From: Planctomycetaceae bacterium
Lineage (GTDB): Bacteria; Planctomycetota; PLA2
Direction of reading: 5' to 3'
Assembly (NCBI GenBank): GCA_011525755.1
Contig: WYBS01000033.1
Location: forward strand, 3,691-67,690
DNA: 64,000 bases
Shown here: one piece after another, positions 16,306-61,025 of the stretch
Layout of the letters: each line of letters begins with the position of its first letter
Position numbering within the stretch: the stretch's first letter is position 1
Notes under the pieces: generated by a model
What the model was told of the DNA's origin: nothing
The model's database searches: none
What the model saw: the letters and a program-made list of their open reading frames with translations, nothing else
Position numbers and translations under genes: made by a program

Positions 16306-16348
16306 GGGCGGAACCCCGCCACGGCCGGCCGGGAGGGCGCGCGCGCCG

Positions 16349-29970: not shown

Positions 29971-30519
29971 TCACCGCGGGAGCCGCTTCGGATCGATCTC
30001 GCGCAGGCGCGGGGCCGCGGCGTCCTTCGGCGACAGCACCGGGTCGCGGACCGGCCAGTCGATCGCGAGATCCTCGTCGTCCCAGCGGACCGCCTGCTCG
30101 CTCGCCGGGTCGTAGGGTGCCGTACATTTGTACGCAAACAGCGCCCGGTCCGACAGCGCGAGGAAGCCGTGCGCGAAGCCCTCCGGGATCCAGAGCTGCG
30201 CGCGGTTCCCCGCGGAGAGCCGGTGGCCGTCCCACCGCCGGTACGTCGGCGAACCGGGCCGCACGTCCACCGCCACGTCGAACACCTCGCCCTGGAGCAC
30301 GTAGACGAGCTTCCCCTGCGCGCTCGGCCACTGGAAGTGGAGGCCGCGGAGCACGCCCCTCCGGCTCTCGCTCACGCTGTCCTGCGCGAAGCGCCCGGGG
30401 ATCCCGTGCTGCTCGTACCGCTCCGCGCGGAACGCCTCGAAGAAGCAGCCGCGCGCGTCCTCGAAGACGTCGGGCGTGATCTTCAGCACGCCCGGGAGCG
30501 CGGTCTCCTCGACCCTCAC
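29971..30519 (-). CDS. rmlC: dTDP-4-dehydrorhamnose 3,5-epimerase
   Basis: GTG at 30519 overlaps the rmlA TGA (GTGA). ARGCFFEAF...RGLHFQ motifs. Confidence 0.9.
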
Positions 30520-31403
30520 GGGCCCTCCCCCGGGCCCCCTCCCCTCGAGAGCCCGAGCAGGTACTCGCCGTACGCCGTGCCCTTGAGCTCCTCCGCGAGC
30601 CGCTTCAGCCGGACGCGGTCGATGAACCCGTTCTCGAAGGCGATCTCCTCCGGACACGCGATCTTCAGCCCCTGGCGCTCCTCGACCGCCTCGATGAAGT
30701 TCGTCGCCTGCCGGAGCGACTCCGGCGTGCCCATGTCGAGCCACGCCATCCCGCGGCCGAGCAGCTCCACGTGCAGCCGCCCGCGCTTCAGATATGCCTC
30801 GTTCACGTCCGTGATCTCGAGCTCGCCGCGCGCGCTCGGCCGGAGCGACTTCGCGATCCCGACCACGTCCCCGTCGTAGAAGTAGAGCCCCGTCACGGCA
30901 TTGCTCGACTTCGGCTCCCTCGGCTTCTCGACGATCGCGACCGGGCGGCCGCCCGCGTCCAGCTCGACCACGCCGTACCGCTGCGGGTTCCTCACGGGGT
31001 ACGCGAACACCGTCGCGCCCTCCTCCGGGATCCGCTGCAGGCGGTCGCGGAACCCGTGCCCGAAGAAGATGTTGTCGCCGAGGATCAGCGCGACCGGGTC
31101 GCCCTTCACGAACGACTCGCCCACGAGGAACGCCTGCGCGATGCCGCCCGGCTTCTCCTGGATCGCGTACGAGAGCCGGAGCCCCCACTGCGAGCCGTCC
31201 CCCAGGAGCTCCCGGAAGAGCGGCTGGTCGCGCGGCGTCGTGATCACGAGGATCTCGCGGATCCCCGCGAGCATCAGCACCGACAGCGGGTAGTACACCA
31301 TCGGCTTGTCGAAGACGGGGAGCAGCTGCTTGCTCACCGCCTTCGTGATCGGGTGGAGGCGGGTGCCGGAGCCGCCCGCGAGGACGATTCCCTTCCTGCT
31401 CAT
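30516..31403 (-). CDS. rmlA: Glucose-1-phosphate thymidylyltransferase
   Basis: [30 protein letters not shown]. Confidence 0.9.
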
Positions 31404-32428
31404 CGTGTGTGGGGGGGTGCGGGGGACCGGAGCCGGTCGCCGTAGTGGCGCTCGTAGTAGCCCATGTACTCGCCCGAGCGGACGCGGTCGAGCCACTCGC
31501 CGTTCTCGTCGTACCAGCGGATCGTCTCCGCCAGCGCCTGCTCGAACTTCGCGCGGGGCTTCCACTGCAGCTCGCGCGCCGCCTTCGCCGGGTCCGGGCC
31601 GTACCGCCGGTCGTGGCCGGGCCGGTCCTGCACGTGCCGGAGCAGGGACTCGGGCTTCCCGAGCGCCTTCAGGATGAACCGCGCGACGTCGAGGTTCTTC
31701 CGGTGGCACGAGCCCGCGAGGTTGTAGATCTCGCCCGGCCTGCCGCGCTCGAGGGCCGCGAGGATCCCCTCGCAGTGGTCGGTCACGTGGATCCAGTCGC
31801 GCTCGTAGAGGCCGTCGCCGTAGATCGGCAAGGGCTTCCCGTCCCGCGCGTTCGCGATGAGGAGCGGCACGAACTTCTCCGGGAACTGGTAGGGCCCGTA
31901 GTTGTTCGAGCCGCGCGTCACGATCACGGGGAGGCCGTGCGTGCGGTGCGCCGCCAGCGCGAGGTGGTCGCTCCCCGCCTTGCTCGCCGAGTAGGGGTTC
32001 GTCGGGCAGAGCCGCGCGTCCTCCGCGGCGAAGACGCCCGGCGCGAGCGGGCCGTAGACCTCGTCCGTCGAGACGTGGAGGAAGCGAAGGGCCCCGCGCT
32101 CGCGCGCGACGTCGAGGAGCACCTGCGTGCCGAGCACGTTCGTGCGGAGGAACGGGAACCCGTCCTCGATCGACCGGTCCACGTGGGTCTCCGCGGCGAA
32201 GTGCACGACGCTCACGGGCCCCTCCGCGGCGTCGAACGCGCGCCGGACGTCGCCCGGCTCGGCGATGTCGCCCTTCACGAAGACGTGGTCGGCCCCCGCG
32301 AGGTTCTCGAGGTTGCCGGCGTAGGTCAGCTTGTCGAGGACGACGACGCGGCGCTTCCCGGCGACGAGGCGCACGAAGTTCGAACCGATGAACCCGGCCC
32401 CGCCGGTGACGAGGAGCGTCTCTCCCAT
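31400..32428 (-). CDS. rmlB: dTDP-glucose 4,6-dehydratase
   Basis: [12 protein letters not shown] and YSASKA (YxxxK). Confidence 0.9.
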
Positions 32429-32435
32429 GGGAGCA

Positions 32436-33266
32436 TCATGCTACGAGAAACCGGCGGAGCGCGTCCCGCCAGTGGGGGAGGCGCTTGCCGCGGATCGCCG
32501 CGAGCTTCCCGCAGTCGAGCGCGCTCATCGCCGGCCGCTTCGCCGGCCGCGGGAACTCCGCCGTCGTGCACGGTACCACCTTCGGCCCCCCGGCCCCCCT
32601 CATTTCGAAGACCGCAAGCGCCATCTCGTGCCAGGTGCACGAGCCCTCGCAGGCGGCGTGGTAGACCCCCGGGACCCCCCGCAGCAGGAGCTCCCAGAGG
32701 ACCGGCGCGAGCTCGAGCGTGGACGTGGGGCAGCCGCGCTGGTCGTTCACGACCTTGATCTCCGGCCTCCCCGCCTGCTCGAGGATCGCGCCGACGAAGT
32801 GGCGGCCGCGGGGGCCGTAGAGCCAGGAGGAGCGGACGATGATCGCGTCCTTCGCCGCCTGCTCGGCCTCGAGCTTCGTCCGGCCGTAGATGTTCAGGGG
32901 GTGCGGGGGATCCTCCTCGCGGTAGGGGCGCTTCGAGGTCCCGTCGAACACGTAGTCCGTCGAGACGAGGAGCATCGGGATCCCGCGGCGGCGCGCGGCG
33001 GCGGCGACCGACCTCGTCGCCTCGACGTTGTCCGCGAACGCGGCCTCCTCCGCGACCTCCGCGCGGTCCACCTGCGTGAACCCGGCGCAGTGGAGCACGC
33101 CCGCGGGCTTCAGGCGCTCGAAGAGGAGCTCGACGTGCTCCGGCTCGGCGAGGTCGCAGTCGGCGCGGGTGACGGGGAGCGGACGGATGCCCTCGGGGGC
33201 GGCGCGCACGGCCTCGCTGCCGAGCATGCCCGCGGCCCCGGTTACGAGGATCTCTTTCGCCACCAC
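32436..33266 (-). CDS. rmlD: dTDP-4-dehydrorhamnose reductase
   Basis: GTG start (gtggtggcg) gives MVAKEILVTGAAGMLGS. Overlaps the 3' end of wecB by about 25 nt. Confidence 0.85.
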   Translation of the reverse strand: MVAKEILVTGAAGMLGSEAVRAAPEGIRPLPVTRADCDLAEPEHVELLFERLKPAGVLHCAGFTQVDRAEVAEEAAFADNVEATRSVAAAARRRGIPMLLVSTDYVFDGTSKRPYREEDPPHPLNIYGRTKLEAEQAAKDAIIVRSSWLYGPRGRHFVGAILEQAGRPEIKVVNDQRGCPTSTLELAPVLWELLLRGVPGVYHAACEGSCTWHEMALAVFEMRGAGGPKVVPCTTAEFPRPAKRPAMSALDCGKLAAIRGKRLPHWRDALRRFLVA

Positions 33267-34347
33267 GTCTCGAATACGTCCACGATCCTAGGCGCAGTGT
33301 GCCCGTCCCACAAATCCGGGACGCGCTTGGCCCCGGGGGGGGGGCCGTCGAGGGCCGCCCTGGCCGCCTTCCGGATCCGGGCGGGATCGCAGCCGGCGAG
33401 GACGTTGCTGCCCTCCGTGAGGGTGACCGGCCGCTCCGTGTTCTCGCGGATCGTGACGCAGGGGATCTGGAGGAAGGTCGTCTCCTCCTGGAGGCCGCCG
33501 GAGTCGGTGAGCGCGATCCGGCTCTGCGAGTAGAGGCGGAGGAAGTCGAGGTAGCCCAGGGGCTCAAGCACGCGGACGTCGCCCTTCTTCGCGAGCCGCT
33601 CGTAGGCGGGGATCGCCTTCAGCCGCTGCGCCGTGCGCGGGTGGCAGGAGAAGACGATCGGAAGCTGCTCGCTGATCTCGTGGATGACGTCCATGATGCC
33701 GAGGAGCGTCTTTTCGTCGTCCACGTTGCTCGGGCGGTGGAGCGTGAGGACCCCGAACCCCTTCGGCGCGAGGCCGAACCGGTCGAGGACGCTGCTTCCC
33801 TTCGCGCGCTCGAGGCTCGCGACGAGCGAGTCGATCATGATGTTGCCGACCCGGTGGATGCGATCCTCGGGCGTGCCCTCCTTGCGGAGGTTCTCGTCCG
33901 CGTCGGGCGACGGCGTGAGGAGGATCTCCGAGAGGCGGTCCGTGACCAGCCGGTTGATCTCCTCTGGCATCTTCCAGTCGAAGCTCCTGAGCCCCGCCTC
34001 GACGTGCGCGACCGGGATCCAGAGCTTGCTCGCGACGATGCTGCACGCGAGCGTCGAGTTGACGTCGCCGACGACCACGACGAGGTCCGGCTTCTCCTTC
34101 AGGCACACCTGCTCGAATCCGACCATCACCTTCGCGGTCTGCTCCGCGTGCGAGCCGGAGCCGACGCCCATGTAGATGTCGGGCTTCGGCATGCGGAGGT
34201 CCTCGAAGAAGACCTTCGACATGTTGTCGTCGTAGTGCTGCCCGGTGTGCAGGAGGAGCTGCGGGATGCCGCGCGCGTTGAGCGCGTGCACGAGCGGCGC
34301 CATCTTCATGAAGTTGGGTCGCGCGCCGACGACGTTGAGGATCCTCA
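33242..34347 (-). CDS. wecB: UDP-N-acetylglucosamine 2-epimerase (non-hydrolysing)
   Basis: GTG at 34347 with AAGAGG just upstream. VRILNVVGARPNFMKMAPL...HVEAGLRS. Confidence 0.85.
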
Positions 34348-34567
34348 CGAACCTCTTATCGGCCGGCCCGCCGCCGGCCCGCCATGGCGGGGCGCGCCGG
34401 ACGCCCCCCCCGCGGACGCCATGCGGGGCAAGGCCGGCGCGGGGCGCGTTCGCGGGCCGGGCCCGGGTTTGTCGACCGTTCTGGACGTCCGGCCGTTCCG
34501 ATCCGAAACAGGGGCGCTCTCCATGCGGTCCTTCCGTCTCATTGGGATACGCTCGCGCCCCATCGTC

Positions 34568-36325
34568 ATGGCCGGCCTCCTTGCGTTCGATCCCGTTCCC
34601 GGTTCCACCGCCTGCGGCCTCGCCGGCGCGAAGGCCTGGGTCGAGCGCGCGAAGGCGCTCGCCACGGAGTCGCCGGGGCCGCACGTCGTGAAGGTCTATC
34701 GCCGGAACGGCAGCGGGGCGCGGCCGGCCGTCGGGCCCCTCGGCTGGGTCGTGACGGCGGGGACGTGGCGCCACCCGGCCGCGGGCCGCGACGACAACGA
34801 GGCGCTCCTCGCGCGGCTCGGGGAGCGCGGCCCCGGGGTCCTCGACGAGCTCGACGGCTGCTACGCCGTCGCGTGGTGGGACCGCGCGTCGGGCACGCTC
34901 ACGGTGGCTCCCGACCACTTCGGCCGGCTCCACGTCTACGGGGCGGAGGCGCCCGAGGGGACCTACATCGGCACCTCGCCGGTCGCCGTCGCGCGCGCCG
35001 CGCGGTCGGTCGATCCCGACCCGGTCGCAACGTGGGAGATGCTCGCGACCGGCGTCATCTACGAGGACCGCTCGCCGTTCGCGGGCGTGAAGCGCCTCCT
35101 CGGGACGCATCGCTACCGCTTCCGGGACGGACGATCCGCCGGGGCCGACGACGCCCCGCTCCTCCCCCCGCGCGAGCCCGGCCCGAGCGCATCGGTCGCG
35201 GACCTCGCCGACGCCTGCCGCGAGGCCGTCTTCGAGTGGTTCGACCGCGGCACCAGGTTCCTGCCGGACCTCACCGGCGGCATGGACTCGCGCCTCGTCG
35301 CGGGCTTCCAGCTCGGGGCAGGGCTCGCGTTCGACGTGACCGTGACCGGCGATCCCGAGGAGCCGGACGCGCGCGTCGCGGGCGACCTCGCGCGTCGCCT
35401 CGGCCTCAACCTGCGGCGCGTGCCGCGCGCGCAGGGCGCCCACGCGCAGCGCTCGTGGGACGCGGTCCTCCGCGCGGCGTCGCGCGTCGAGGGGACCTAC
35501 GACGCCGCCGAGTACGCCGCGATCGCCGCCGTGCACGAGCCGAACTCCGCGATCGGCGAGTTCAGCGTGAACGGCTCGGGCGGCGAGGTGTACCGGAACT
35601 ACTGGTGGGACGAGCGCCACGTCGGCCGGACGGACGGGGACGCCGTCGGCGAGCTCGTGCGCCGCTTCGCGGCGGCGGCGATCGCCCCGCGGTTCGCGGA
35701 GCCGCGCGACGCGGGACGGCACTTCCGCGACGTGCTCGCCCGGACGCTCGAGGCGCGCGCGGGCGACCCCATGCCCGCGCTCTTCGACCACGCCTACCTC
35801 CACCTTCGGATGCAGTGCTGGCAGGGCGCGATCGCGAGCGCCACGAACCAGATCTGGCCGACGATCTCCCCGCTCCTGCTCGCGCGTCCCCTCTCGGTCC
35901 TCTACCGCGTGCCCGACCGGGAGCGGCTCCATGGCCGCCTCTTCCGTTCCCTCATGCGCTCCTTCCCGGGGCCCTTCCGCACCACGCCGCTCGTGACGGG
36001 GTTCCCCCCGATGGAGCCCGCGCTCACGAACTTCTGGCGCTTCGTGCCCGGGCTCTTCGGCCTGCCGGCGCAGTACTGGGGCCGCGCGCGCGAGCGGTTC
36101 CTGCGCGGCCGTCCGCGCCCCGACGACGGCGAGGCGGTGCGCGCGCTGATGGCGGCAGGTGCGGCCGACTTCCTGCGGCCGCGCGACCTCGTCCTGCGGC
36201 CGCTCCTCGATGCGAGGCGGCTCGACGAGTTCCTCGCGGTCGCGATCCGGGAAGGGACGGTGCCGCTCCGGTTCGTCGGCCGGCTCGTCGCGCTCGAGTG
36301 GGCGCTGCGCGAGGCGTCGGCGTAG
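34568..36325 (+). CDS. Asparagine-synthetase (AsnB) family protein with degenerate N-terminal glutaminase nucleophile (MAG instead of MCG)
   Basis: Intact PP-loop DLTGGMDSRLVAG. The N-terminal IVMAGLLAFDP places Ala where the class-II GATase Cys2 normally sits. An alternative ATG exists at 34523. Divergent from wecB. Confidence 0.65.
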   Translation: MAGLLAFDPVPGSTACGLAGAKAWVERAKALATESPGPHVVKVYRRNGSGARPAVGPLGWVVTAGTWRHPAAGRDDNEALLARLGERGPGVLDELDGCYAVAWWDRASGTLTVAPDHFGRLHVYGAEAPEGTYIGTSPVAVARAARSVDPDPVATWEMLATGVIYEDRSPFAGVKRLLGTHRYRFRDGRSAGADDAPLLPPREPGPSASVADLADACREAVFEWFDRGTRFLPDLTGGMDSRLVAGFQLGAGLAFDVTVTGDPEEPDARVAGDLARRLGLNLRRVPRAQGAHAQRSWDAVLRAASRVEGTYDAAEYAAIAAVHEPNSAIGEFSVNGSGGEVYRNYWWDERHVGRTDGDAVGELVRRFAAAAIAPRFAEPRDAGRHFRDVLARTLEARAGDPMPALFDHAYLHLRMQCWQGAIASATNQIWPTISPLLLARPLSVLYRVPDRERLHGRLFRSLMRSFPGPFRTTPLVTGFPPMEPALTNFWRFVPGLFGLPAQYWGRARERFLRGRPRPDDGEAVRALMAAGAADFLRPRDLVLRPLLDARRLDEFLAVAIREGTVPLRFVGRLVALEWALREASA

Positions 36326-36346
36326 CGGCCGCCCCCCGACCCCCTG

Positions 36347-37987
36347 CTATTCCTTCGCCGGAAGGACCTCGACCGCGGCGACGAGCACCGGGGTCCAGTT
36401 GCCGGCGGCGTCGCTCACGCGGGCGTAGACGACCTTGAGCCCGGGCTCGGCATTGCCGCCGTGGCGCGACAGGTCCCAGCCGGGGCGCAACGCTGCGAAC
36501 GGCTCGGGCTCCGTCCACGTCCTGCCGTCGTTGCTGAGGCGCATCTGCGCGCCTTCGCCCATCCCGCTCACGCCGTCGCCCGCCGTGAACGCGAGGTCGA
36601 CGACCAGGCCGGGCGCCGTCCCCTTGCCGTCCCCGATCCGGAACGACGCCGTCGGCGGCGTGCGGTCGTTGGCGGCGGGCGGCAGCTCGCCCTTCACGAG
36701 CGCGTCGAGTTGCCAGCCGGGGTTCTTGCCCTCGCCGGCGTAGGCGCCGCGGTAGGCGCCGTTCCCCTTGTCCGTGCCGTTGAAGTCGCGACCGGAATCG
36801 GTGTCGAGCGCGAAGGCCGAGAGGTCGACCGGGTCGCCCCTGCACTTGCCCGGGAGCGGATGGAAATCCATCTTGCCGAGGACGAGCGAGGGGTTCCTCA
36901 CGTACTTCCTCGCCTTGGAGACCGGCACGTGGAGGTTCCTCGACTCCTTCGTGCACCGGCCCGCGATCGCGTGGTCGGAGAACATCAGGTTGCCGACGAC
37001 GAGGTGGTCGTCCGTCGCGGGGTGGACGAAGCGGATCGCGGTCTCCACGCCGTAGAACGTGTTGTTGTAGACGTACGCGCGTTGCAGCTTGCCGTAGTGG
37101 TTCTGGAGGTGGATGCCGTCCCCCGTGCAGTCGACGAAGACGTTGTCGTGGATGGAGACGCGCCCCTCGGCCTGGAGGAGGGACTCGCGGTGGTTGTGGT
37201 AGAAGAGGTTCCCGTAGACCTCGTAGGCGTCCTCGCTGCCCGGGCCGCGGGTCGGCAGCGCGCCGAGCAGCAGGTTCGGGCGCTCCCCGCTGTCGTTCTC
37301 CAGCTCGCCCTTGAGGAAGACGTTGTGGCGGATGATCGTCTTCTGCGGCGTCGTCGGGAGCCCGGGGATCCCGGGGTCGCGCGGATTCTGGTGCTTGATC
37401 TGCATGTTGTAGCCGCGCGAATCGAGGAAGACGTTGTACTCGATGAGGCCGCCGATGAAGGGCTCCGTGCCGTCCGAGTCGCCGAGGTACGCGCCCGTCC
37501 CCGCGGCGACGATCGTGTTCCGGCGGATGACCCAGTTCCATGCGGGGGCCTTCGTCGAGATGGCGACCTGCGACTGGTCGTACCCGTGGCCGACGATGTT
37601 GCAGTTCTCGATCCGGATGTGATGGCTCGGTGCCGCCGACGCGCTGACGGCGAAGGCGCCTCCCCGGTCGCGGCCGTCGAGCGTGAGGTTCTCGATCGCG
37701 ACATAGCAGGAGCCGCGGATCTCGATCGTGTTCTGGCCGTCCTGCGCGAGGATGCGGGGCCGCTCGCCGCCCTCCGCGCCCCGGATCACGATCCATGCGT
37801 CGGGCCGGCCCTGGAGCCTTATCTCGGGCATGCCCGGGTAGTCCCCTTCCTCGAGGACCATCGTGTCGCCGGGCCCGAGCTGCTTCAGGATCCGGGCGTA
37901 GTCCCATGTGCCCGCCTTGTAGGTCTCGGCCCGGACCTCGAGCGCGAGCCACGGCAGGAGCAGGAGAGCGACCATGCATCTCATCAA
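36347..37987 (-). CDS. Secreted right-handed parallel beta-helix protein (pectate-lyase-fold; candidate polysaccharide lyase/hydrolase)
   Basis: Signal peptide MMRCMVALLLLPWLALEVRA. Repeated NxxVxG beta-helix rungs (IENCNIVGHG, NTIVAAGTGAYLG, HNVFLKG, HDNVFVDCTGDG). Confidence 0.75.
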   Translation of the reverse strand: MMRCMVALLLLPWLALEVRAETYKAGTWDYARILKQLGPGDTMVLEEGDYPGMPEIRLQGRPDAWIVIRGAEGGERPRILAQDGQNTIEIRGSCYVAIENLTLDGRDRGGAFAVSASAAPSHHIRIENCNIVGHGYDQSQVAISTKAPAWNWVIRRNTIVAAGTGAYLGDSDGTEPFIGGLIEYNVFLDSRGYNMQIKHQNPRDPGIPGLPTTPQKTIIRHNVFLKGELENDSGERPNLLLGALPTRGPGSEDAYEVYGNLFYHNHRESLLQAEGRVSIHDNVFVDCTGDGIHLQNHYGKLQRAYVYNNTFYGVETAIRFVHPATDDHLVVGNLMFSDHAIAGRCTKESRNLHVPVSKARKYVRNPSLVLGKMDFHPLPGKCRGDPVDLSAFALDTDSGRDFNGTDKGNGAYRGAYAGEGKNPGWQLDALVKGELPPAANDRTPPTASFRIGDGKGTAPGLVVDLAFTAGDGVSGMGEGAQMRLSNDGRTWTEPEPFAALRPGWDLSRHGGNAEPGLKVVYARVSDAAGNWTPVLVAAVEVLPAKE

Positions 37988-38239
37988 AGGGCCTCCGTGG
38001 CAGGCGGAGCCCGCGGCGCCGCGCGCGGCGGGGCTCCTGCCGTCCCGGATCGAGACACCCTATTCGCATGCCGGATACGCCGGCACCGCGCTACCTTAGC
38101 ACGACCCCGGCGAGCCGACGCCGCGGCGCGGAGGACGGCGTCTCATGACGAGGCGATCGCGCCGCCGAAGCGCCTTCCATCGGGACTTCTAAAGGTCCTC
38201 GACGCGAAAAGACGAAACGCAAGGGGAACCATGAGCGGC

Positions 38240-40087
38240 TTGTGCGGGTGGGCCGGATACACGGCCGACGAGGAGAGCCGGCGCAAGCTCCTCGCGCGGA
38301 TGGCGGAGGCGCTCTCGGCGCACGACGGGAGCGAGGTCTCCACGCGGGGCTCCGTCGGCTGCGGCCTCGCGGTCGCCGCGTTTCACGGGAACGCCGCGGT
38401 CCACGAGGAGGGGGACCTGCACGTGGCGATCGCCGGGCGCCCGGTCTGGAACGACCGGGAGCTCGCCGAGCTCGCCGCGCGCGCCGGCCACGGGAAGGCG
38501 CTCGCGGCCGCCTACGCCGCGAAGGGCGTGAAGCTCCTCGACCTCCTCGGCGGGGCGTTCGCGCTCGCGGTCCTGCGCGACGGGGACTGGCAGGCGCTCC
38601 TCGCGACCGACCGGCTGGGGACGATCCCGCTCGACTACGCCTTCCGCCACGGCTGCCTCGTGTTCGGCACGCACGGCGAGGCGCTCCAGGCGCACCCGCG
38701 CGCGGAGTCGGAGATCGACCCGCAGGGGCTCTTCTCCTATTTCTTCCAGTCCGCCGTCGCCGCGCCCGGGACGGTGCGGAAGCACCACCGGCGCCTGCTG
38801 CCGGGCCACCGCCTCCTCCTGAAGGGCGGGAAGATCGAGGTCGAGGCCTACTTCCGCCAGAAGATCACCGAGGAGCGACGGCCGCTCGCGGAGGCGGAGG
38901 AGGAGTTCCGCTCGCTCGTGCAGGCGGGTGTCGAGCTCGCGGCGAAGGGTGCGGAGGTGGGCGCGTTCCTGAGCGGCGGCACCGACAGCTCGACCGTCGC
39001 CGGGATGCTCACGAGGATCCTCGGGCGGCCCGCCCGCACCTACTCCATGGGTTTCGAGGCCGAGGGCTTCGACGAGATGGAGTATGCGCGGTGCGCCGCG
39101 AAGCACTTCGGCACCGACCACCACGAGTACTACGTGACGCCCGAGGACGTCCTCGAGGCGGTCCCGCGCATCGCCGAGGTGCACGGGGACCCCTTCGCCA
39201 ACGAGTCGGCCGTGCCGACGTTCTGCTGCGCGCGGCTCGCCGCGCAGGACGGCGTCACGCGCATGCTCGCGGGCGACGGCGGCGACGAGCTCTTCGGCGG
39301 CAACGAGCGCTACGCGAAGCAGGGCACCTTCGAGCGGTACGCGCGTGTCCCGGGCTTCCTGCGCGTCCCGCTCGAGGCGATCCTCGCCATGGTCCCCATG
39401 GGCGACCGGCTGTGGCCGTTCCGCAAGATGCGGAGCTACATCCGCCAGGCGAAGACGCCGCTGCCCGACCGGATGCACGAGTACAACCTCGTCCTCCGGC
39501 TCGGCGCCCGGAACATCTTCACGCCCGAGTTCCTGAAGCAGGTGGACGCCGAGGCGCCGATGCGTCTCGCGCGCCACGTCTGGACGAATGCGGGCGAGGC
39601 GAGCTACGTCAACAAGATGCTCGCGTACGACTGGAAGTTCACGCTGGCGGACAACGACCTGCCGAAGGTCTCGCGCTCGTGCGAGCTCGCGCGCATCGAC
39701 ATCGCCTACCCGTTCCTCACCGACGAGCTCGCGTCCTTCGCGGCGCGCCTGCCGACGGACTGGAAGGTGAAGGGCAAGGAGCTCCGCTGGTTCTTCAAGC
39801 GCGCGCTCAGGGACTTCCTGCCGGAGAAGATCCTCCGCAAGAAGAAGCACGGCTTCGGCCTGCCGTTCGGCCTCTGGCTGCGCACGCACAAGGGGCTCCA
39901 GCAGCTCTCCGGGGAGTCGCTCTCCGACCTGAAGCGGCGCGGCATCGTGCGGCCCGCGTTCGTGGACGAGGTCCTGAAGCTCCACCGGAGCGACCACGCG
40001 ACCTTCTACGGCGTCATGGTGTGGCGCCTGATCATGCTCGAGCAGTGGTTCAAGGTGCACGAGCGCCAGCCGGCGCAGGTGAAGTGA
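38240..40087 (+). CDS. Asparagine synthetase (glutamine-hydrolysing) family amidotransferase, paralogue 2
   Basis: A TTG at 38240 yields MCGWAGY, a proper Cys2 nucleophile. The track's ATG at 38231 would give MSGLCGW. PP-loop FLSGGTDSSTVAG. Confidence 0.8.
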   Translation: MCGWAGYTADEESRRKLLARMAEALSAHDGSEVSTRGSVGCGLAVAAFHGNAAVHEEGDLHVAIAGRPVWNDRELAELAARAGHGKALAAAYAAKGVKLLDLLGGAFALAVLRDGDWQALLATDRLGTIPLDYAFRHGCLVFGTHGEALQAHPRAESEIDPQGLFSYFFQSAVAAPGTVRKHHRRLLPGHRLLLKGGKIEVEAYFRQKITEERRPLAEAEEEFRSLVQAGVELAAKGAEVGAFLSGGTDSSTVAGMLTRILGRPARTYSMGFEAEGFDEMEYARCAAKHFGTDHHEYYVTPEDVLEAVPRIAEVHGDPFANESAVPTFCCARLAAQDGVTRMLAGDGGDELFGGNERYAKQGTFERYARVPGFLRVPLEAILAMVPMGDRLWPFRKMRSYIRQAKTPLPDRMHEYNLVLRLGARNIFTPEFLKQVDAEAPMRLARHVWTNAGEASYVNKMLAYDWKFTLADNDLPKVSRSCELARIDIAYPFLTDELASFAARLPTDWKVKGKELRWFFKRALRDFLPEKILRKKKHGFGLPFGLWLRTHKGLQQLSGESLSDLKRRGIVRPAFVDEVLKLHRSDHATFYGVMVWRLIMLEQWFKVHERQPAQVK

Positions 40088-40103
40088 GGGGGCTCCGGGG
40101 GCC

Positions 40104-42080
40104 ATGTGCGGCATCGCAGGGGTGTTCCACCGCGACGGGCGGCCGGTCGACGCGGACGTGCTCGTCCGGATGACGCGGTCGATCGTCCACCGCGGCCCGG
40201 ACGAGGAGGGCTACTTCCTCAACCGGCAGGACGCGGCCGGGTGCTGCCCGGGCGTGCCGATGCGCGGCCTCCTTCGCCGCGACGGCGACGGCCACGTCGG
40301 CTTCGGCCACCGCCGCCTCTCGATCATCGACCTGAAGACGGGCCAGCAGCCGCTCTCGAACGAGGACGGCACGGTCTGGATCACGTTCAACGGCGAGATC
40401 TACAACTTCGCGGAGCTCCGGCGCGAGCTCGAGGCGAAGGGGCACGTGTTCCGCACGAACTCGGACACCGAGATGATCGTGCACGCGTGGGAAGAGTGGG
40501 GGCCCGAGGCGGTGAAGCGCTTCCGGGGCATGTTCGCGTTCGCCGTCTGGGACGAGAGGAAGCGCACGCTCTGGCTCGGCCGCGACCGGCTCGGGAAAAA
40601 GCCGCTCTACTACTGCGACCACGAGGGCTCGTTCCTCTTCGGCTCGGAGCTGAAGACGATCCTCCAGGCCCCCGGAACCCCCCGCGATATCGATGTGGCG
40701 GCGCTGTCGGACTACCTGTCGTTCCAGTACGTGCCGGCGCCGAAGTCGATCTTCAAGCACATCCGGAAGCTCCCGCAGGCGCACTACGCGGTCGTGACGG
40801 AGCGCGAGGTGCGGATCGTGCCGTACTGGACGATCGACTTCACGCCCGTGCGCACCGAGAAGCCGGAGCAGCTCATGGAGGAGGTGCTCGAGGACCTCCG
40901 CGAGGCCGTGAAGATCCGGCTCATGAGCGAGGTGCCCTTGGGCGCGTTCCTCTCGGGCGGCGTGGACTCCTCGGCCGTGGTGGGGCTCATGGCCGGGCTC
41001 TCCTCGACGCCCGTGAAGACCTCGTCGATCTCGTTCGGCGAGGCGAAGTACGACGAGGCCGAGTACGCGCGGATGGTCGCGAAGAAGTTCGGCGCGGAGC
41101 ACCACGAGTACTCGGTGACGCCCGAGGCCGTGCCGGTCGTCGAGAAGCTCGCCTGGCACTATGACGAGCCGTTCGCGGACTCGTCGGCGGTGCCCACCTA
41201 CTACGTTTCGCGCACGGCGCGCGAGAACGTCACCGTGGCGCTCTCGGGCGACGGCGGCGACGAGAACTTCGCCGGCTACCGGCGCTACTGGTTCGACCTG
41301 CGCGAGAACGCGGTGCGGAACATGGTGCCGCGGTTCCTGCGGGGTGCCGTGTTCGGCACGCTCGGGAAGCTCTACCCGAAGGCGGACTACCTGCCGCAGA
41401 TCTTCCGCGGCAAGGCGTTCATCAGCAACGTCGCGCGCGACCCGGTCTCGGCCTACTTCTTCTCGATGACGTCGTTCAAGGAGGACCAGAAGCCGCAGCT
41501 GCTCCTGCCCGAGGTCTCGCGCGAGCTCCGAGGGTACTCCTCGCTCGACGGCTTCCGCGCGACCTACGAGGCGGCGAAAGCGGAGGACCACCTCTCGCGG
41601 CTCCTCTACCTCGACATCAAGACCTACCTCTGCGACGACATCCTCGTGAAGGTGGACCGGGCGAGCATGGCGGTGTCGCTCGAGGTGCGCTGCCCGGTGC
41701 TCGACCACGTGTTCATGGAGAAGGCGGCAAGGATCCCGTCGGCGATGAAGATCGTCGGGCGGGAGAAGAAGTGGATCTTCAAGAAGGCGCTCGAGAAGCT
41801 CCTGCCGAAGGAGATCCTCTACCGGCCGAAGATGGGGTTCGGGATGCCGGTCGAGGAGTGGCTGCGCGGCGACCTGAAGGAGTTCGCGGCGGAGCTCCTG
41901 CTCGAGGGCGAGGGGACGCGCGCGTTCTTCCGCCGCGAGTACGTGGAGAAGCTCTGGCAGAAGCACCAGTCGGGGCTCTCCAACTTCCAGGCGCCGCTCT
42001 GGATCCTGATGATGTTCAACCTGTGGCACCGCCGGTTCGCGGGCGCCGCCGTCCCCGCCGCCGCCGGGGCCGCGTCGTAG
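40104..42080 (+). CDS. asnB: Asparagine synthetase (glutamine-hydrolysing), exosortase-A-associated amidotransferase-like, paralogue 3
   Basis: MCGIAGVF, RLSIIDL, LSGGVDSSAVVG. 658 aa. Confidence 0.9.
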   Translation: MCGIAGVFHRDGRPVDADVLVRMTRSIVHRGPDEEGYFLNRQDAAGCCPGVPMRGLLRRDGDGHVGFGHRRLSIIDLKTGQQPLSNEDGTVWITFNGEIYNFAELRRELEAKGHVFRTNSDTEMIVHAWEEWGPEAVKRFRGMFAFAVWDERKRTLWLGRDRLGKKPLYYCDHEGSFLFGSELKTILQAPGTPRDIDVAALSDYLSFQYVPAPKSIFKHIRKLPQAHYAVVTEREVRIVPYWTIDFTPVRTEKPEQLMEEVLEDLREAVKIRLMSEVPLGAFLSGGVDSSAVVGLMAGLSSTPVKTSSISFGEAKYDEAEYARMVAKKFGAEHHEYSVTPEAVPVVEKLAWHYDEPFADSSAVPTYYVSRTARENVTVALSGDGGDENFAGYRRYWFDLRENAVRNMVPRFLRGAVFGTLGKLYPKADYLPQIFRGKAFISNVARDPVSAYFFSMTSFKEDQKPQLLLPEVSRELRGYSSLDGFRATYEAAKAEDHLSRLLYLDIKTYLCDDILVKVDRASMAVSLEVRCPVLDHVFMEKAARIPSAMKIVGREKKWIFKKALEKLLPKEILYRPKMGFGMPVEEWLRGDLKEFAAELLLEGEGTRAFFRREYVEKLWQKHQSGLSNFQAPLWILMMFNLWHRRFAGAAVPAAAGAAS

Positions 42081-42863: not shown

Positions 42864-44039
42864 TCAGGCGCGGTGGGACGCGACCGCGGCGGGGGCGCCG
42901 CACCGCTCCTCGAAGTAGGCGAGCACCTCGCGGCCCACGTCGGACCAGGTGCGCGCCGGGCGCGGCGTCTCGCTTCTCGCCTCGAGCACCGCTGCGAGCC
43001 CGCGGGCGAACGCCTCCGGCGTCCGCGGCGCGAGGATGCCCTCCGCGCGCGAGGGCAGAGCCTCGCGCATCTCCGGGATGTCGCTTGCGAGGCACCGCGT
43101 CCCGCACGCGAGCGACTCGAGGACCGCGTTCGGCGAGCCGGCCCACCGGCCCGGGTGCGCCGACGCGTCCGCCGCCGAGAACCAGAGCGGCACCTGCTGG
43201 GGCGGCACCGGGCCCATCACCCGCACGCGGTGCGAGAGCCCCATCTCCGTCGCGCGCCGGCGGAACGCCTCGAACTCCCCCTCGCCCACGACGTCGAGCA
43301 CGATGTCCATCGGCGCGTCCGGGTGCCGGAGCGCCTCGAGCAGGAGATCCTGCCCGTGCACGTCGTCCACGCGGCCCACGCACACCACGCGCCGCCCCTC
43401 GACCGGCAGCCCGAGCGCCCGGCGCGCCTGCGCGCGGTCGCGCGGATGAAAGACCGCGGCGTCCACGCCGTTCGGGATCACGCGGATGTCGCCCTCGGTG
43501 AAGGGGCGGAGCGCCGCCGCGAGATCCTTCGACATCGCGATGGTCCCCCGGGCCCCCCCCAATGCCTCGCGGATGCGGCGCGCGATCGCGGGGATCCTCG
43601 CGATCCGCTTCACGTCGCTCCCGCGCGCGGAGACGATGTACGGGATAGTGAGCTCCCTCGCCACGCGCGCGACCGCGCACGCGTCGGGATAGAGGTAGTG
43701 GACGTCGATCACGTCGGGGCGGAAGCGCGCCGCCTCCTCGCGCAGCGCCGGCCGGATCGCGCGCGCGTAGGCGCGGTCCTGGAACCACATCCCGATCTTC
43801 GGGAGCATGAGGTAGCGCGGGCGGCGCACCGCGACGCCCTCGATCTCCTCCGCCTTGGGCATCGCGCGCAGGTCCCGGTAGCCGGAAGGGAGGGGGCCCG
43901 GGGGAACCCACGGCTGGGGCGAGACCACCCGCACCTCCGCGCCCTCCGCGCGCATCGCCAGCACGCGGCGGAGCACGAAGACCCCGTTCGCCGGGAGCGG
44001 CCGGCCCGGGAAGAGGGACGTGACCGTCAGGATCCTCAT
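42864..44039 (-). CDS. Glycosyltransferase family 4
   Basis: ATG at 44039 gives MRILTVTSLFPG. C-terminal GT4 E-x7-E-like region. Confidence 0.8.
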   Translation of the reverse strand: MRILTVTSLFPGRPLPANGVFVLRRVLAMRAEGAEVRVVSPQPWVPPGPLPSGYRDLRAMPKAEEIEGVAVRRPRYLMLPKIGMWFQDRAYARAIRPALREEAARFRPDVIDVHYLYPDACAVARVARELTIPYIVSARGSDVKRIARIPAIARRIREALGGARGTIAMSKDLAAALRPFTEGDIRVIPNGVDAAVFHPRDRAQARRALGLPVEGRRVVCVGRVDDVHGQDLLLEALRHPDAPMDIVLDVVGEGEFEAFRRRATEMGLSHRVRVMGPVPPQQVPLWFSAADASAHPGRWAGSPNAVLESLACGTRCLASDIPEMREALPSRAEGILAPRTPEAFARGLAAVLEARSETPRPARTWSDVGREVLAYFEERCGAPAAVASHRA

Positions 44040-44049
44040 GGGGAGGCGG

Positions 44050-45351
44050 TCACGCGGCCTTGAGGCCGACCGCGACATTGTTCTGCTGCGGCCGCGGCGG
44101 CTGCGGCAGGATCTTCCCGGCGTCCACCGGCGTCGCGAGGAACGCCCCGATGAGGCCGATGATCGCCCACATGTACTCGGAGAGGAACTGGCTCGTGAAG
44201 GTGCCGGTCGCGAGGAACCCGAAGAGCGCGCAGTTGAGCGCCGTCGCCATCGCCTCGCCGTCCTTGTCGCCGAGCGCCCGGAAGAGGGCGGCGCGCTTGC
44301 GGAGGCGCATCAGGAGGAGGCCGACGACGAGCACGAAGAAGACGAGCATCGGCAGGCCGTACTCGGAGGAGCACTTCAGCCAGAGGCTGTGCGGCTCGGC
44401 CGTGAAGATCGAGTGGCGGTTGGAGACGACCGGGAAGTTGTCGGCGCCCACGCCCGTCAGCGGGTAGTCGAGCGTCATCTTGACGGCGACGGTCATGTGC
44501 TCCATGCGGTTCTTGGCGGAGCTCTCCGTCTGGTACTCGCTGGTCTCGATCGTGGACATGCGCTGCCAGACGAAGTCGGGCATGAGCAGGACCGCGACGA
44601 CCGCGATGACCGCGCCCAGCGCGACGCGCTTGAAGAACCGGCCCGTGAGGAACGAGTACCAGGCGAGCAGCATGGCGAACCCGACGACCGCGCCGCGGGA
44701 CAGGCTGAAGGCCACCGCGAAGACCGCGAAGACGGTGGCTGCCTTGATGGCCAGCCGGACCCACCGCCGCCACCGGCCCTCGTAGTGGAACGCCGCGTAG
44801 ATCATCATCGGGACGCAGGCCGTGCCGGCGACGAGGAAGTCGTTCCGGTCCGTCATCTGCCCGCCCGGGATCGCCATCTCGATGACGGGCTGCATGCGCA
44901 CGAACCCGAGGAGGCCGTGGTGCGCCATCCAGATCCCGACCGACCCGGCGAGCGTGTAGAGGAAGAGCCGCTGTGCCTCGCGCGTGCAGAGGGTCGCGGA
45001 GATGAACGCGAGCGGGATGAAGTACTTGGTGACCGTGATCGTCTTCGGGAGCGCCAGGTCGCGGTACTCCGCCGCCAGCGCGCAGATGAAGAACCAGCCG
45101 AGGGACACGAGGATGACCGTCGCGCCCATGTTCCACCGGCGCTTCCACGGCCGCAGGATGATCGACAGCGCGAGGACCGCGGTGCAGATGTGCACCGGGT
45201 GGATCGCCTCGAGGAGCGGGTGCCGGCGAGCGAACCACACCGGGCGGAAGATGTCGTTCCAGATGAAGAAGCAGCTCGCGTAGACCGCGTTGCCGAGGCC
45301 GAGCGTGGCTCCCGCGGCGAAGGCGGAGAGGACGAAGATCAGTCTGAACAT
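44050..45351 (-). CDS. O-antigen ligase / Wzy-like polymerase family membrane protein (exosortase-A-associated O-glycosylation-ligase-like)
   Basis: More than 10 predicted TM helices. Contains a Wzy_C-like periplasmic loop. Confidence 0.7.
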   Translation of the reverse strand: MFRLIFVLSAFAAGATLGLGNAVYASCFFIWNDIFRPVWFARRHPLLEAIHPVHICTAVLALSIILRPWKRRWNMGATVILVSLGWFFICALAAEYRDLALPKTITVTKYFIPLAFISATLCTREAQRLFLYTLAGSVGIWMAHHGLLGFVRMQPVIEMAIPGGQMTDRNDFLVAGTACVPMMIYAAFHYEGRWRRWVRLAIKAATVFAVFAVAFSLSRGAVVGFAMLLAWYSFLTGRFFKRVALGAVIAVVAVLLMPDFVWQRMSTIETSEYQTESSAKNRMEHMTVAVKMTLDYPLTGVGADNFPVVSNRHSIFTAEPHSLWLKCSSEYGLPMLVFFVLVVGLLLMRLRKRAALFRALGDKDGEAMATALNCALFGFLATGTFTSQFLSEYMWAIIGLIGAFLATPVDAGKILPQPPRPQQNNVAVGLKAA

Positions 45352-45373
45352 GCGGGGGTCCTCCGGGCGGGCG

Positions 45374-46441
45374 TCACGGGAAGTATCTGACCAGCTTGGG
45401 GCCGAGCGCCCGCGCCACCGGGGCGGGCAGGCGGTTCCATGCCTTGCGGAGCTTCGGGAAGAGGCCGCGGTTCGGGTCGGTGGCCCCGTTCCGCTCCGGG
45501 CCGTCGTACTGGTACGGAAGCGGCTCGGCTTCGAAGCCCTGGTTGCACTTGAACTGCACGACCCCCTCGTTCGAGAGGCGGCTCCTGCCGAAGTCGAAGC
45601 GCGTGAGACCGCGCTCGACCGCGTGCTCCATGAGGCGGAAGTACTTGTAGTTGTTCGCCTTGAGGCGGGTCGCGTCCGGGATCTCGCCGCTCCAGAGCGG
45701 CATCATGATCGACCGGAACACGACCGAGAGCACGCTCGCGACCGGGCGCCCCTCGTGGCGGACGACGAGCGTCGAGGTCGCGCCGGGGAAGCGGCGGATC
45801 ACGGACTCGAACATCCGCTTCGGGAAGACCGGCGTGCCGAGGCTCTGGTAGGAGGCGGCGAGCAGGGGGTAGAACGTGTCGACGTCGGCCGCGAAGTCGG
45901 CCTCGAGCTTCCACCGCTTCGTCGCCTGGTTGATCGCCTCGCGCGCCTTCTTCGGGAACGTGCGGTAGACCTCCGCGACGGTCGCGGGCAGCGCCTTCTC
46001 GAACGTCACGAACCCCTCGACGCGGGGAAGGTCGAGAAGCCCCGCGTAGCGGTTCCTGAGCTCGACGGGTCCGAGACCGAGGCCCTTGGCCGCCGAGAGG
46101 AGCGCCTCCTCCGTCGCGCGGTCCTCGCCGACCGCGCCGCCGTACACGGTGTGCGGCAGCGAGTAGAGCGCGCGCCTGCCCCTGAGCGACCGGCAGGCGA
46201 AGAGCGGCAGCACGCCGCAGACGCGGCCGTCGCGCCACGCCGAGAGGTAGAAGGGCTCGTAGCCGAACGTCTCCTCGAGGACGGCCTTCCACCCGGACTG
46301 GTGGAAGAAGGTCGCGCGCGGGTGGGCGAGGACGAACGCGTCCCAGCTCGCCGCGTCGGCGTCCCGCCACGGGCTCACGACGGGCGGCACGTCGCGCGCG
46401 CGCTCGTCGTCTGTCTTCACCGCTGTCTCACTGTGTTGCAT
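45374..46441 (-). CDS. FemAB-related (GNAT-fold) protein, PEP-CTERM-system-associated type
   Basis: ATG at 46441 (MQHSETAVKTDD). FemAB-like segment FFHQSGWKAVLEETFGYEPFYL. Confidence 0.75.
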   Translation of the reverse strand: MQHSETAVKTDDERARDVPPVVSPWRDADAASWDAFVLAHPRATFFHQSGWKAVLEETFGYEPFYLSAWRDGRVCGVLPLFACRSLRGRRALYSLPHTVYGGAVGEDRATEEALLSAAKGLGLGPVELRNRYAGLLDLPRVEGFVTFEKALPATVAEVYRTFPKKAREAINQATKRWKLEADFAADVDTFYPLLAASYQSLGTPVFPKRMFESVIRRFPGATSTLVVRHEGRPVASVLSVVFRSIMMPLWSGEIPDATRLKANNYKYFRLMEHAVERGLTRFDFGRSRLSNEGVVQFKCNQGFEAEPLPYQYDGPERNGATDPNRGLFPKLRKAWNRLPAPVARALGPKLVRYFP

Positions 46442-46532
46442 GCGTGGGAGGAATGTCGAGTGGGCGAAACGTCCGTCGGTCCCGCGTTCCAGACGCAAAG
46501 GCCGTACCTTTGGCCCCCGGAGCCCCCCCGGA

Positions 46533-47405
46533 TCACCGCGCGGGAGACGCGGTGAGCACGTCGGACATCGGCCCGAAGGGAAGCGCGGAGAGCAGCGCAT
46601 CGAGCTTCCCGAGGGCCTTCCCGATGCCCACGTAGTGGCGGAAGCGGTTGAGCGCCGGCAGCCCCGCGGGGCGCGGCTGGCCCGGGTCGAACTCCCAGGG
46701 GTGGAGGTAGATCGTCCCGGGCGTCCTGAGCGAGGCGAGGGCCTTTCGTGTCCAGCCGAGCGGCAGGAGCCGGAAGAAGCCGCCGCCGACCGGCAGGCGC
46801 AGGCCCATGAGCGAGCCGCAGGAGACCGGGAACTCCGTGATCGTGCCCCCGTTCCTCAGCCGGCGGAGGTGGGGGGCGCGGGGGGAGGAGGGGATCCCGT
46901 AGCGGTCGTGCCGCACGGGCGCGATCGAGGAGTCGTAGGAGAACCCCTCCTCGGCGAGGATGTCGAGCGCCCAGAGCGACCGCTCGACGATCGAGAACGT
47001 GGAGGCCCGGTAGCCGGTGACGGGCGCCCCCGCGATGTCCTCGAGGAACGCCTTCGCCCTGCGCGTCTCGTCCCGGAACATTTCGGGGGTCTGCCGGTAG
47101 ATGAGCTCGTGCGACCAGCCGTGGCAGGCGACCTCGTGTCCCTGCGCCGCGATCGCGCGCACGACCCCGGGCTCGCGCGCCGCCGCGTCGCCGAGGACGA
47201 AGAACGTCGCCTTCACGCCGCGGCGGTCGAGCAGATCGAGGAGCAGCTCCGTGCTCCGCGCCACGCGCGCCTCGAGGCCGTCCCAGGCCGAGCGCGGGGC
47301 CACGGGACGCAGGTTCTCCGCGTGGTACCAGCACTCGACGTCGATCGTCAGCGCGTGGCGCAGGGCTGCGGCCGTCGCCTGGCCGGTCGCGACGGTCGGG
47401 CTCAC
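46533..47405 (-). CDS. Polysaccharide deacetylase (NodB-fold), PEP-CTERM-locus subfamily-like
   Basis: GTG at 47405 overlaps the ugd TGA (GTGA). ALTIDVECWYH...ATFFVLG...HGWSHE. Confidence 0.8.
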   Translation of the reverse strand: MSPTVATGQATAAALRHALTIDVECWYHAENLRPVAPRSAWDGLEARVARSTELLLDLLDRRGVKATFFVLGDAAAREPGVVRAIAAQGHEVACHGWSHELIYRQTPEMFRDETRRAKAFLEDIAGAPVTGYRASTFSIVERSLWALDILAEEGFSYDSSIAPVRHDRYGIPSSPRAPHLRRLRNGGTITEFPVSCGSLMGLRLPVGGGFFRLLPLGWTRKALASLRTPGTIYLHPWEFDPGQPRPAGLPALNRFRHYVGIGKALGKLDALLSALPFGPMSDVLTASPAR

Positions 47406-48718: not shown

Positions 48719-48720
48719 GC

Positions 48721-54873: not shown

Positions 54874-54881
54874 GAGGGGGC

Positions 54882-56453: not shown

Positions 56454-56455
56454 GG

Positions 56456-61021: not shown

Positions 61022-61025
61022 CGGC

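Follow-up and report, generated by a model that had tools for sequence, protein, structure and literature searches.

The 64,000-nucleotide stretch of contig WYBS01000033.1 of a Planctomycetaceae bacterium (hereafter the window) carries three genes on the plus strand, named here P1, P2 and P3 in 5′ to 3′ order, that all encode proteins of the AsnB (asparagine synthetase B) superfamily, as indicated by profile searches, alignment and predicted fold. Our analysis suggests, with a probability of roughly 60%, that this trio comprises one glutamine-dependent uronic-acid amidotransferase, P3, and two glutaminase-dead, ATP-dependent amide-forming paralogues, P1 and P2, and that it represents a conserved module of XrtA-type polysaccharide loci. 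An earlier reading of the letters alone, termed here the sequence-only reading, had described three AsnB-family genes at 34568-42080 and interpreted them after AsnB homologues of O-antigen loci. Codon-position GC and family matches bear out the genes, and the set of XrtA/PEP-CTERM markers around the trio shows that the locus is not of the O-antigen type.

Glutaminase and synthetase domains of P1, P2 and P3

The G+C content of the window is about 71%, stop codons are rare, and long spurious open reading frames (ORFs) are common. Gene frames were set by codon-position GC together with a codon-usage model trained on clear genes. Owing to the high G+C content and the few stops, several ORFs in the region are spurious or overlong: several long ones (34384-36438, 36024-38069 and 38242-40173) lie in non-coding frames by both measures and were rejected as genes, and the ORFs 33299-36325 and 36461-40087, which hold P1 and P2, respectively, extend far upstream of the genes and were rejected as gene extents.

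P3 begins with MCGIAGV, as the sequence-only reading had pointed out, and thus places a Cys right after the initiator Met. Moreover, alignment to E. coli AsnB reveals a complete glutamine pocket, consisting of C2, HRRLS (with R71 corresponding to AsnB R49), N96-G97-E98 and S120-D121. The protein passes the model TIGR01536 (asparagine synthase, glutamine-hydrolyzing) with 522.8 bits (cut-off 267.1), and narrowly misses TIGR03108, the model of the WbpS/WbqG type, with 789.9 bits (cut-off 816.9) and a match in two stretches. The latter match is interrupted in the glutaminase domain, where P3 has about 22 residues more than E. coli AsnB (NRQDAAGCCPGVPMRGLLRRDGDG, with a Cys-Cys pair; about 40225-40300, residues about 41-65). 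This insertion is common to the planctomycete orthologues and probably explains why the score stays just under the cut-off. Proteins at least 90% identical to P3 stem from metagenome-assembled genomes (MAGs) of Planctomycetota. WbpS of P. aeruginosa, WbqG of E. coli O121 and PGN_1234 of P. gingivalis are members of the TIGR03108 family, and deletion of PGN_1234 results in loss of the uronamide (PMC7468200). In view of this uronamide role of the family, the complete glutamine pocket and the near-cut-off score, P3 is therefore most likely a WbpS-like uronic-acid amidotransferase, so that the WbpS-type amidation proposed by the sequence-only reading holds for P3 as a candidate.

P1 starts with MAGLLAF and has Ala at the position of the nucleophile. 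The loss of the Cys had been noticed before, and it proved to be a family-wide feature: all 30 homologues inspected (39-88% identity, from metagenomes and Planctomycetota MAGs) lack Cys2 and start with M-[GA]-x-[LF]-L. An upstream in-frame start that would provide a Cys-containing N-terminus does not exist, since no Cys codon occurs in frame anywhere between P1 and the divergent wecB gene. The start equivalent to position 34568 is present in 25 of 29 other family members, the remainder having short N-terminal extensions (two) or truncated N-termini (two). The public record places the start of P1 at ATG 34523 (600 amino acids); this start, which adds MRSFRLIGIRSRPIV, likewise without Cys, was rejected on the basis of the family N-termini. 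We also considered an internal ACGLAG (residues 16-21), which MAFFT aligns to MCGIAG of AsnB, suggesting a 15-residue propeptide; as it is found only in the two closest of the 30 homologues, it was dismissed as a chance resemblance. A profile search retrieved 547 cluster representatives of the wider P1 family at E <= 1e-30, which are about 600 amino acids in length and carry TGG[YF]DS, and Cys2 is present in only one of 154 full-length members. P1 thus belongs to a small planctomycete clade inside a broad Cys-less family.

In addition to the nucleophile, P1 lacks the arginine and the oxyanion-hole asparagine of the glutamine pocket, of which the Gly remains, together with an Asp in DDNE that is partly conserved. 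The synthetase motifs, in contrast to the pocket, are retained: DLTGGxDSR, NGSGGE and CWQG, including the Thr of the ATP-pyrophosphatase loop (PP-loop), are invariant among the 30 homologues. The sequence-only reading had stated that all three paralogues keep SGGxDS; this applies to P2 (SGGTDS) and P3 (SGGVDS), and not to P1, where TGGMDS represents a conservative Ser-to-Thr variant that hhalign aligns to SGGLDS of AsnB. P1 passes no curated model, yielding weak matches to GATase_7, TIGR01536 (35.6 bits) and TIGR03108 (29.2 bits); the cyclase models NF033535 and NF033561 do not match, and P1-like relatives reach at most 63 bits with them. Comparison of the P1 family with the AsnB family by hhalign gave a probability of 98.8%, covering AsnB residues 98-298 only. 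The AlphaFold2 (AF2) model of P1 (predicted local distance difference test, pLDDT, 93.7; predicted template modelling score, pTM, 0.93) displays the full AsnB fold with both domains, and the top Foldseek matches are TsnB9 (7YLZ, TM-score 0.66), AsnB (1CT9), beta-lactam synthetase (1M1Z) and CarA (1Q15), with E-values from 1e-17 to 1e-14. Public records list proteins of the P1 type as hypothetical protein, apart from a few JGI entries that call them asparagine synthase.

P2 belongs to a much larger family (7,947 matches at E <= 1e-30 in several phyla), with identities of up to about 50% in Massilia, Nitrosospira, Sulfuricella and Sulfurimicrobium. Its gene starts with ATG AGC GGC TTG TGC, encoding MSGLC, and the sequence-only reading had proposed that initiation at TTG 38240 generates a canonical N-terminus. 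The homologues do not support this start. Ser2 is present in 112 of the 120 best homologues, the N-terminus being nearly always [MVL]-S-G-[LIFV]-C-G-W, and both Ser2 and Gly3 are invariant across 21 aligned sequences that are 49-89% identical to P2, which indicates that these residues are translated. Moreover, other members have Ile, Phe or Val at position 4; codons 4 and 5 of the orthologue in the planctomycete locus L004 read ATC GGC (Ile, Gly), and all four loci checked show a Shine-Dalgarno-like motif ahead of codon 1. The start at TTG 38240 was therefore rejected in favour of the ATG, from which P2 is also called in the public record of the contig (618 amino acids).

Exposure of the Cys would still leave P2 without the remainder of the glutamine pocket. 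The segment corresponding to R49 is deleted, the counterparts of N74, E76 and D98 are replaced, and the pocket Gly alone is kept (the invariant G69). The hhalign comparison with the AsnB family is full-length (E 2e-79) and pairs MSGLCGW ungapped with MCGIAGV, thereby placing Ser2 at the nucleophile position and Cys5 at the position of Ala5. In line with this alignment, strand 1 of the AF2 model of P2 (pLDDT 89.4) extends from residue 3 with pLDDT >90, in the same register as in P1 (strand 3-9), and helix 1 starts at residue 14. The PP-loop SGGTDS is present in 113 of 120 family members, and the 21-sequence alignment shows SGGTDS, GDGGDE and over 100 further columns without variation. P2 matches Pfam Asn_synthase at 3.7e-75 and GATase weakly. 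It remains below the cut-offs of TIGR01536 (223.6 bits), TIGR03108 (261.7 bits) and the lasso-peptide/macrolactam cyclase models NF033535 and NF033561 (89.8 and 72.4 bits; cut-offs 525 and 300, respectively). Proteins of the P2 type appear in public records as asparagine synthase, asparagine synthase-related protein or asparagine synthetase B family protein. P2 hence appears to be an AsnB-like protein with an intact synthetase domain and no working glutaminase site.

Alternatively, P2 might be a true N-terminal nucleophile (Ntn) amidotransferase whose Cys5 is exposed either by removal of an MSGL propeptide, for which PurF of B. subtilis provides a precedent, or by initiation at TTG 38240. Conservation of Cys5 in 107 of 120 homologues and the resemblance of CGW[AI]G to the canonical CGI[AV]G speak for this possibility, as does the occurrence of TTG right before Cys5 in the window and in the loci L002 and L008. 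However, Ser2 and Gly3 are translated, position 4 varies, and Cys5 is replaced by Gly, Ser, Phe, Leu or Ala in 13 of 120 homologues, with Gly in the orthologues of the trios of the L004 and L011 types. Together with the degenerate pocket, the alignment of Ser2 rather than Cys5 with the nucleophile and the position of strand 1, these findings render an Ntn enzyme improbable.

A conserved trio in XrtA/PEP-CTERM polysaccharide loci

The trio is located in a locus of the XrtA/PEP-CTERM type, which serves exopolysaccharide formation and the anchoring of surface proteins. Five markers of these systems score above their cut-offs within 15 kb of it: TIGR03019 (FemAB family), TIGR03006 (polysaccharide deacetylase), the glycosyltransferase models TIGR03087 and TIGR04063, and TIGR03098 (acyl-CoA ligase). 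The core downstream of P3 is encoded on the opposite strand and contains genes for a GT4 glycosyltransferase, a Wzy_C/PEP_O_lig_1-like protein, pepcterm_femAB, the XrtA-system polysaccharide deacetylase, an NDP-sugar dehydrogenase and the glycosyltransferases stp1 and stp3. The ugd-type and wecB genes mentioned by the sequence-only reading are indeed nearby (Table 1).

Inspection of relatives revealed that P1, P2 and P3 are directly contiguous and in the same order in three independent types of planctomycete contigs (L002/L003, L004/L005 and L011). In the window, a gene on the opposite strand separates P1 from P2. The sequence-only reading had described its product as a secreted parallel beta-helix protein, and this description is confirmed by a match to Pfam Beta_helix (PF13229) at 2.2e-10; secretion is probable, since the N-terminus (MRCMVALLLLPWLALEVRA/ETY), judged by eye, resembles a signal peptide. 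The match to NosD is just over the gathering score (26.4 versus 23.6 bits), that to chondroitinase B is sub-threshold, and a sequence search of the PDB gave no meaningful match. The family comprises 971 matches, all uncharacterised, from Planctomycetota and Myxococcota; MYXO-CTERM anchors are present in some of them. A role as polymer-specific glycanase or lyase is plausible for this protein. In L002, two beta-helix paralogues are located upstream of the trio in divergent orientation, and in L004 the same place is taken by a divergent gene (6226-9510) for a 1,094-amino-acid protein with a rhamnogalacturonan-lyase-like PcRGLX_2nd domain. Because P1-P2-P3 are contiguous in these relatives and the beta-helix or lyase gene lies upstream instead, the interruption in the window is a local rearrangement and the beta-helix gene stands outside the module, although a secreted candidate for polysaccharide cleavage upstream of the trio may be a recurring feature.

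Members of the three families also occur in other combinations. Genes of the P1 clade are accompanied by a canonical AsnB only in L007 and L010, and L006 has such a gene alone in a polysaccharide locus. P1-like genes with about 30% identity are present in polysaccharide loci of Rhodocyclaceae, Rhodoferax, Acidobacteriota, Nitrospirales, Chromatium and Syntrophobacteraceae, where MCG-type or P2-type genes often adjoin. P2 homologues recur at three kinds of place, among them in XrtA loci of Betaproteobacteria. The P2 homologue of Sulfurimicrobium lacus follows Bac_transf-PrsK-PrsR and is located near PrsT and PEP-CTERM genes, those of Nitrosospira-like and Pseudoduganella loci lie directly downstream of a ligase-decarboxylase pair, and that of L091 directly precedes a canonical AsnB (4-nt gap), followed by GT4, Wzy_C, FemAB and deacetylase genes as in the window.

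In two loci (L008, 7045-11854; L090, 5082-9854), we observed a P2-type gene directly 3′ of genes for the exosortase-A-associated acyl-CoA ligase and a pyridoxal phosphate (PLP)-dependent decarboxylase, the genes being about 100-140 nt apart. This direct adjacency suggests that the P2-type gene shares a pathway with the ligase and the decarboxylase; in the window, the corresponding pair (54882-57742) is 14 kb away from the trio.

In betaproteobacterial and Bryobacterales polysaccharide loci, an MCG-type AsnB gene is directly followed by a Cys-less P1-like gene (L027, a Rhodocyclaceae MAG, 5797-12772; L039), or the two are about 6 kb apart (L018). These P1-like proteins start with MSHAFLFVP or MSQFLV and have TGGYDS or TGGFDS as PP-loop, and in L027 a second MCG-type gene follows after about 1.5 kb. 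Where two asparagine synthetase genes have been described for clusters of this kind, a third, poorly annotated P1-like paralogue may have been overlooked.

The synteny bears on two other explanations of the trio. P1 and P2 could be non-catalytic pseudoenzyme partners of P3, acting as scaffold in a hetero-oligomer, as substrate presenter or as ammonia acceptor. The fixed order P1-P2-P3 with short gaps in L002, L004 and L011, the short distance between the P2 and P3 genes (16 nt here, 4 nt in L091) and the restriction of the glutamine site to P3 would fit such a complex, and AsnB enzymes are dimers. Yet the PP-loop and many synthetase columns are invariant in both families, which argues that the ATP chemistry is kept. 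Moreover, P2 homologues often have PrsK/PrsR or the ligase-decarboxylase pair as neighbours and are distant from any canonical AsnB, genes of the P1 type can be found without the other two (L006) or accompanied by P3 alone (L007, L010), and the ammonia tunnels of AsnB enzymes run within one subunit. We hence regard pseudoenzyme partners as rather unlikely.

It is very improbable that the trio represents ordinary asparagine synthetases for asparagine supply, unrelated to the polysaccharide. P3 does pass TIGR01536, and its close relatives are named accordingly in public records. However, P1 and P2 fail this model (35.6 and 223.6 bits), and the TTIR segment of AsnB, whose residues Thr322, Thr323 and Arg325 are implicated in the aspartate chemistry, reads FADSS in P3, FANES in P2 and AEYAA in P1. 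Furthermore, members of all three families are found inside XrtA-type polysaccharide loci of several phyla.

Taken together, we favour the reading of the trio as one amidotransferase and two amide-forming paralogues, which could be accommodated in the following pathway. WecB and the NDP-sugar dehydrogenase would generate a (di)N-acyl uronic acid, the C6 carboxylate of which would be adenylated by P3, as by WbpS/WbqG, and converted into the uronamide with ammonia tunnelled from glutamine; P3 joins a complete glutamine amidotransferase domain of class II to an ATP-pyrophosphatase domain. P1 and P2 would likewise adenylate a carboxylate at the expense of ATP and take the nitrogen of the amide not from glutamine but from free ammonia or from an amine, for instance an amino acid or the product of the decarboxylase; their targets might be a second and a third carboxylate of the polymer or of an anchoring glycan. 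We propose adenylating amide-forming enzymes because the glutaminase site is dead in both proteins, while the PP-loop and the synthetase motifs are invariant, and by analogy with beta-lactam synthetase, CarA and the lasso-peptide cyclases this role is most likely. The substrates, the nitrogen donor and the catalytic activity given here for P1 and P2 are predictions from sequence.

Several observations weigh against this reading. The P1-type and P2-type families are uncharacterised, and for P1 the adenylation chemistry is assumed from the PP-loop only. The C-terminal half of P1, which would hold the counterparts of catalytic residues such as AsnB Lys449, is not alignable by hhalign, and a Ser is aligned with AsnB Glu348. 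The preservation of Cys5 in most P2 homologues is a feature for which a glutaminase-dead enzyme gives no account. With its score 27 bits below the TIGR03108 cut-off and its match to the generic asparagine synthase model, P3 could, judged from its sequence, also synthesize asparagine. Finally, profile scans recognised neither an exosortase gene nor a gene for a PEP-CTERM protein within the 64-kb window.

An extension of the preferred reading, which we consider doubtful, is that P1-type and P2-type proteins are amide ligases that use amines instead of glutamine-derived ammonia to build the acceptor to which exosortase A attaches PEP-CTERM proteins. If so, the acceptor could be, for example, a uronamide 'linking sugar' substituted with an amino acid or an amine, analogous to the Wbp/Vim product of type IX secretion, and the amines might be supplied by the co-located genes for the PLP-dependent decarboxylase and the acyl carrier protein and ligase.

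Features of the window and neighbouring genes

The coordinates of the trio, its motifs and intergenic distances, and the adjoining genes are listed in Table 1.

Table 1. Positions of the three AsnB-family genes and of surrounding features in the window
Feature	Position or length	Strand or orientation	Remarks
rmlC, rmlA, rmlB, rmlD (dTDP-rhamnose pathway)	29971-33266	-	
wecB (UDP-GlcNAc 2-epimerase)	33242-34348	-	TIGR00236, 322.9 bits; divergent from P1
Gap wecB / P1	219 nt	divergent	
P1, Cys-less AsnB-fold protein	34568-36325	+	585 amino acids, MAGLLAF; start from codon-position GC and homologue N-termini
P1 PP-loop variant TGGMDS	35273-35290	+	inside invariant motif DLTGGxDSR
Gap P1 / beta-helix gene	21 nt	convergent	
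Right-handed parallel beta-helix protein	36347-37984	-	Pfam PF13229
Gap beta-helix gene / P2	246 nt	divergent	
P2, AsnB-like, intact synthetase domain, degenerate glutaminase domain	38231-40087	+	618 amino acids, MSGLCGW
P2 codons 4-5, TTG TGC (Leu4 Cys5)	38240-38245	+	earlier-proposed start; read as internal codons
P2 PP-loop SGGTDS	38972-38989	+	from the sequence
Gap P2 / P3	16 nt	same strand	P3 begins 16 nt past the P2 stop
P3, canonical AsnB-family amidotransferase, probably glutamine-dependent, WbpS / XrtA-system type	40104-42080	+	658 amino acids, MCGIAGV
P3 PP-loop SGGVDS	40953-40970	+	from the sequence
XrtA/PEP-CTERM polysaccharide locus core	42864-51406	-	markers above cut-offs
NDP-sugar dehydrogenase	47402-48718		TIGR03026
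Acyl carrier protein, exosortase-A-associated acyl-CoA ligase (TIGR03098), PLP-dependent decarboxylase (TIGR03099-like)	54604-57742	+	

Between the stp3 glycosyltransferase gene and the genes for acyl carrier protein, ligase and decarboxylase, the plus strand encodes a GH127-like protein with a weak C5-epimerase match and a double-GNAT protein (51652-53963); a GH127-like gene also precedes the ligase gene in the Syntrophobacteraceae locus L012. Past the last glycosyltransferase gene, an IS3/IS481-type transposase gene and two small genes on the minus strand (59232-60377 and 60695-61226) seem to delimit the polysaccharide locus on this side, and beyond 62 kb the G+C content of the window drops to about 66%.

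On the other side of the trio, two tandem genes for PilT/PilU-family ATPases (4422-6519, minus strand) overlap by 11 nt and adjoin a gene resembling those of REP-associated tyrosine transposases (3362-4354, plus strand). Two adjoining paralogous genes (15106-17623, minus strand) encode proteins of 399 and 424 amino acids, in which an FHA domain is fused to a Ser/Thr kinase domain; they are followed on the opposite strand by genes for two tetratricopeptide repeat proteins (392 and 1,238 amino acids) with weak PrsT-like matches. A 758-amino-acid protein without Pfam or NCBIfam match, encoded at 23442-25718 on the plus strand, has a C-terminal tail of repeats rich in Pro, Ala, Glu and Lys (PAEGKPAEEKPAEEGK), and the next gene encodes a TolB-like beta-propeller protein. 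Scans of the window for tRNA genes and Rfam families gave no matches.

Comparison with known amidotransferases and related loci

AsnB homologues without glutaminase function are known from other pathways, and the presence of several AsnB genes in loci of this kind has in part been noted in the literature. Two asparagine synthetase genes are conserved in the floc-formation/PEP-CTERM exopolysaccharide cluster (PMC9012009), and a passage in PMC7662799, citing An et al. 2016, states that both are needed for floc formation. Haft et al. 2006 (PMC1569441) do not mention asparagine, amidotransferase, decarboxylase or acyl-CoA. New, as we see it, are the two defined glutaminase-dead subfamilies, the MSGLCGW type and the Cys-less TGGxDS type, which are large, conserved and uncharacterised; neither Pfam-A nor the 18,950 NCBIfam models include a family model specific to one of them. 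XrtA loci carry up to three distinct AsnB-family lineages, only one of which is a real glutamine amidotransferase. Separating these lineages corrects a likely over-annotation as asparagine synthase and provides concrete candidates for amide-forming steps in the matrix chemistry of flocs and biofilms. The trio moreover bears on two questions, the target of linkage by exosortase A and the decoration of the associated polysaccharide. The compound to which exosortase A links PEP-CTERM proteins is called unidentified in PMC7468200, which also describes the PEP-CTERM FemAB-like and deacetylase genes as parallels of VimA and VimE.

P3 resembles WbpS, WbqG and PGN_1234 in its two-domain architecture, the MCG start, the full glutamine pocket, SGGxDS and the near-cut-off score, as well as in its neighbours (FemAB/VimA-like, deacetylase/VimE-like and glycosyltransferase genes), and it differs from them by the insertion of about 22 residues. 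P1 (29.2 bits) and P2 (261.7 bits) fall outside this family.

The fold of E. coli AsnB (1CT9; TIGR01536, NF006949) is common to all three proteins, the matches of P2 and P3 by hidden Markov model or hhalign extending over the full length. P3 shares C1, R49, N74-G75-E76 and D98 with AsnB, whose PP-loop and G-[DE]-G-x-D-E motif recur in both P2 and P3. The T322/T323/R325 segment, in contrast, is conserved in none of the three; in P1 and P2 the nucleophile is missing, as is most of the glutamine pocket, and P1 has the Ser aligned to Glu348.

Like P1 and P2, the Cys-less AsnB homologues beta-lactam synthetase (1JGT), carbapenam synthetase CarA (1Q15) and the lasso-peptide/macrolactam cyclases, which form amide bonds independently of glutamine, combine a dead or absent glutaminase with a retained ATP-pyrophosphatase domain. 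Beta-lactam synthetase, CarA and TsnB9 are among the best structural matches in Foldseek, whereas the matches to hidden Markov models are weak and far below cut-offs. Beta-lactam synthetase, CarA and the cyclases belong to natural-product clusters, whereas P1 and P2 are encoded in polysaccharide loci, and P1 has TGGxDS instead of SGGxDS. The hydroxyamidotransferase TsnB9 (7YLZ) begins with Cys, unlike P1 and P2.

The floc cluster of Zoogloea resiniphila and Aquincola tertiaricarbonis is a locus of the same kind with several AsnB-family genes. The papers on this cluster mention two genes, whereas the Rhodocyclaceae MAG L027 contains two MCG-type genes and, in addition, one P1-like Cys-less gene.

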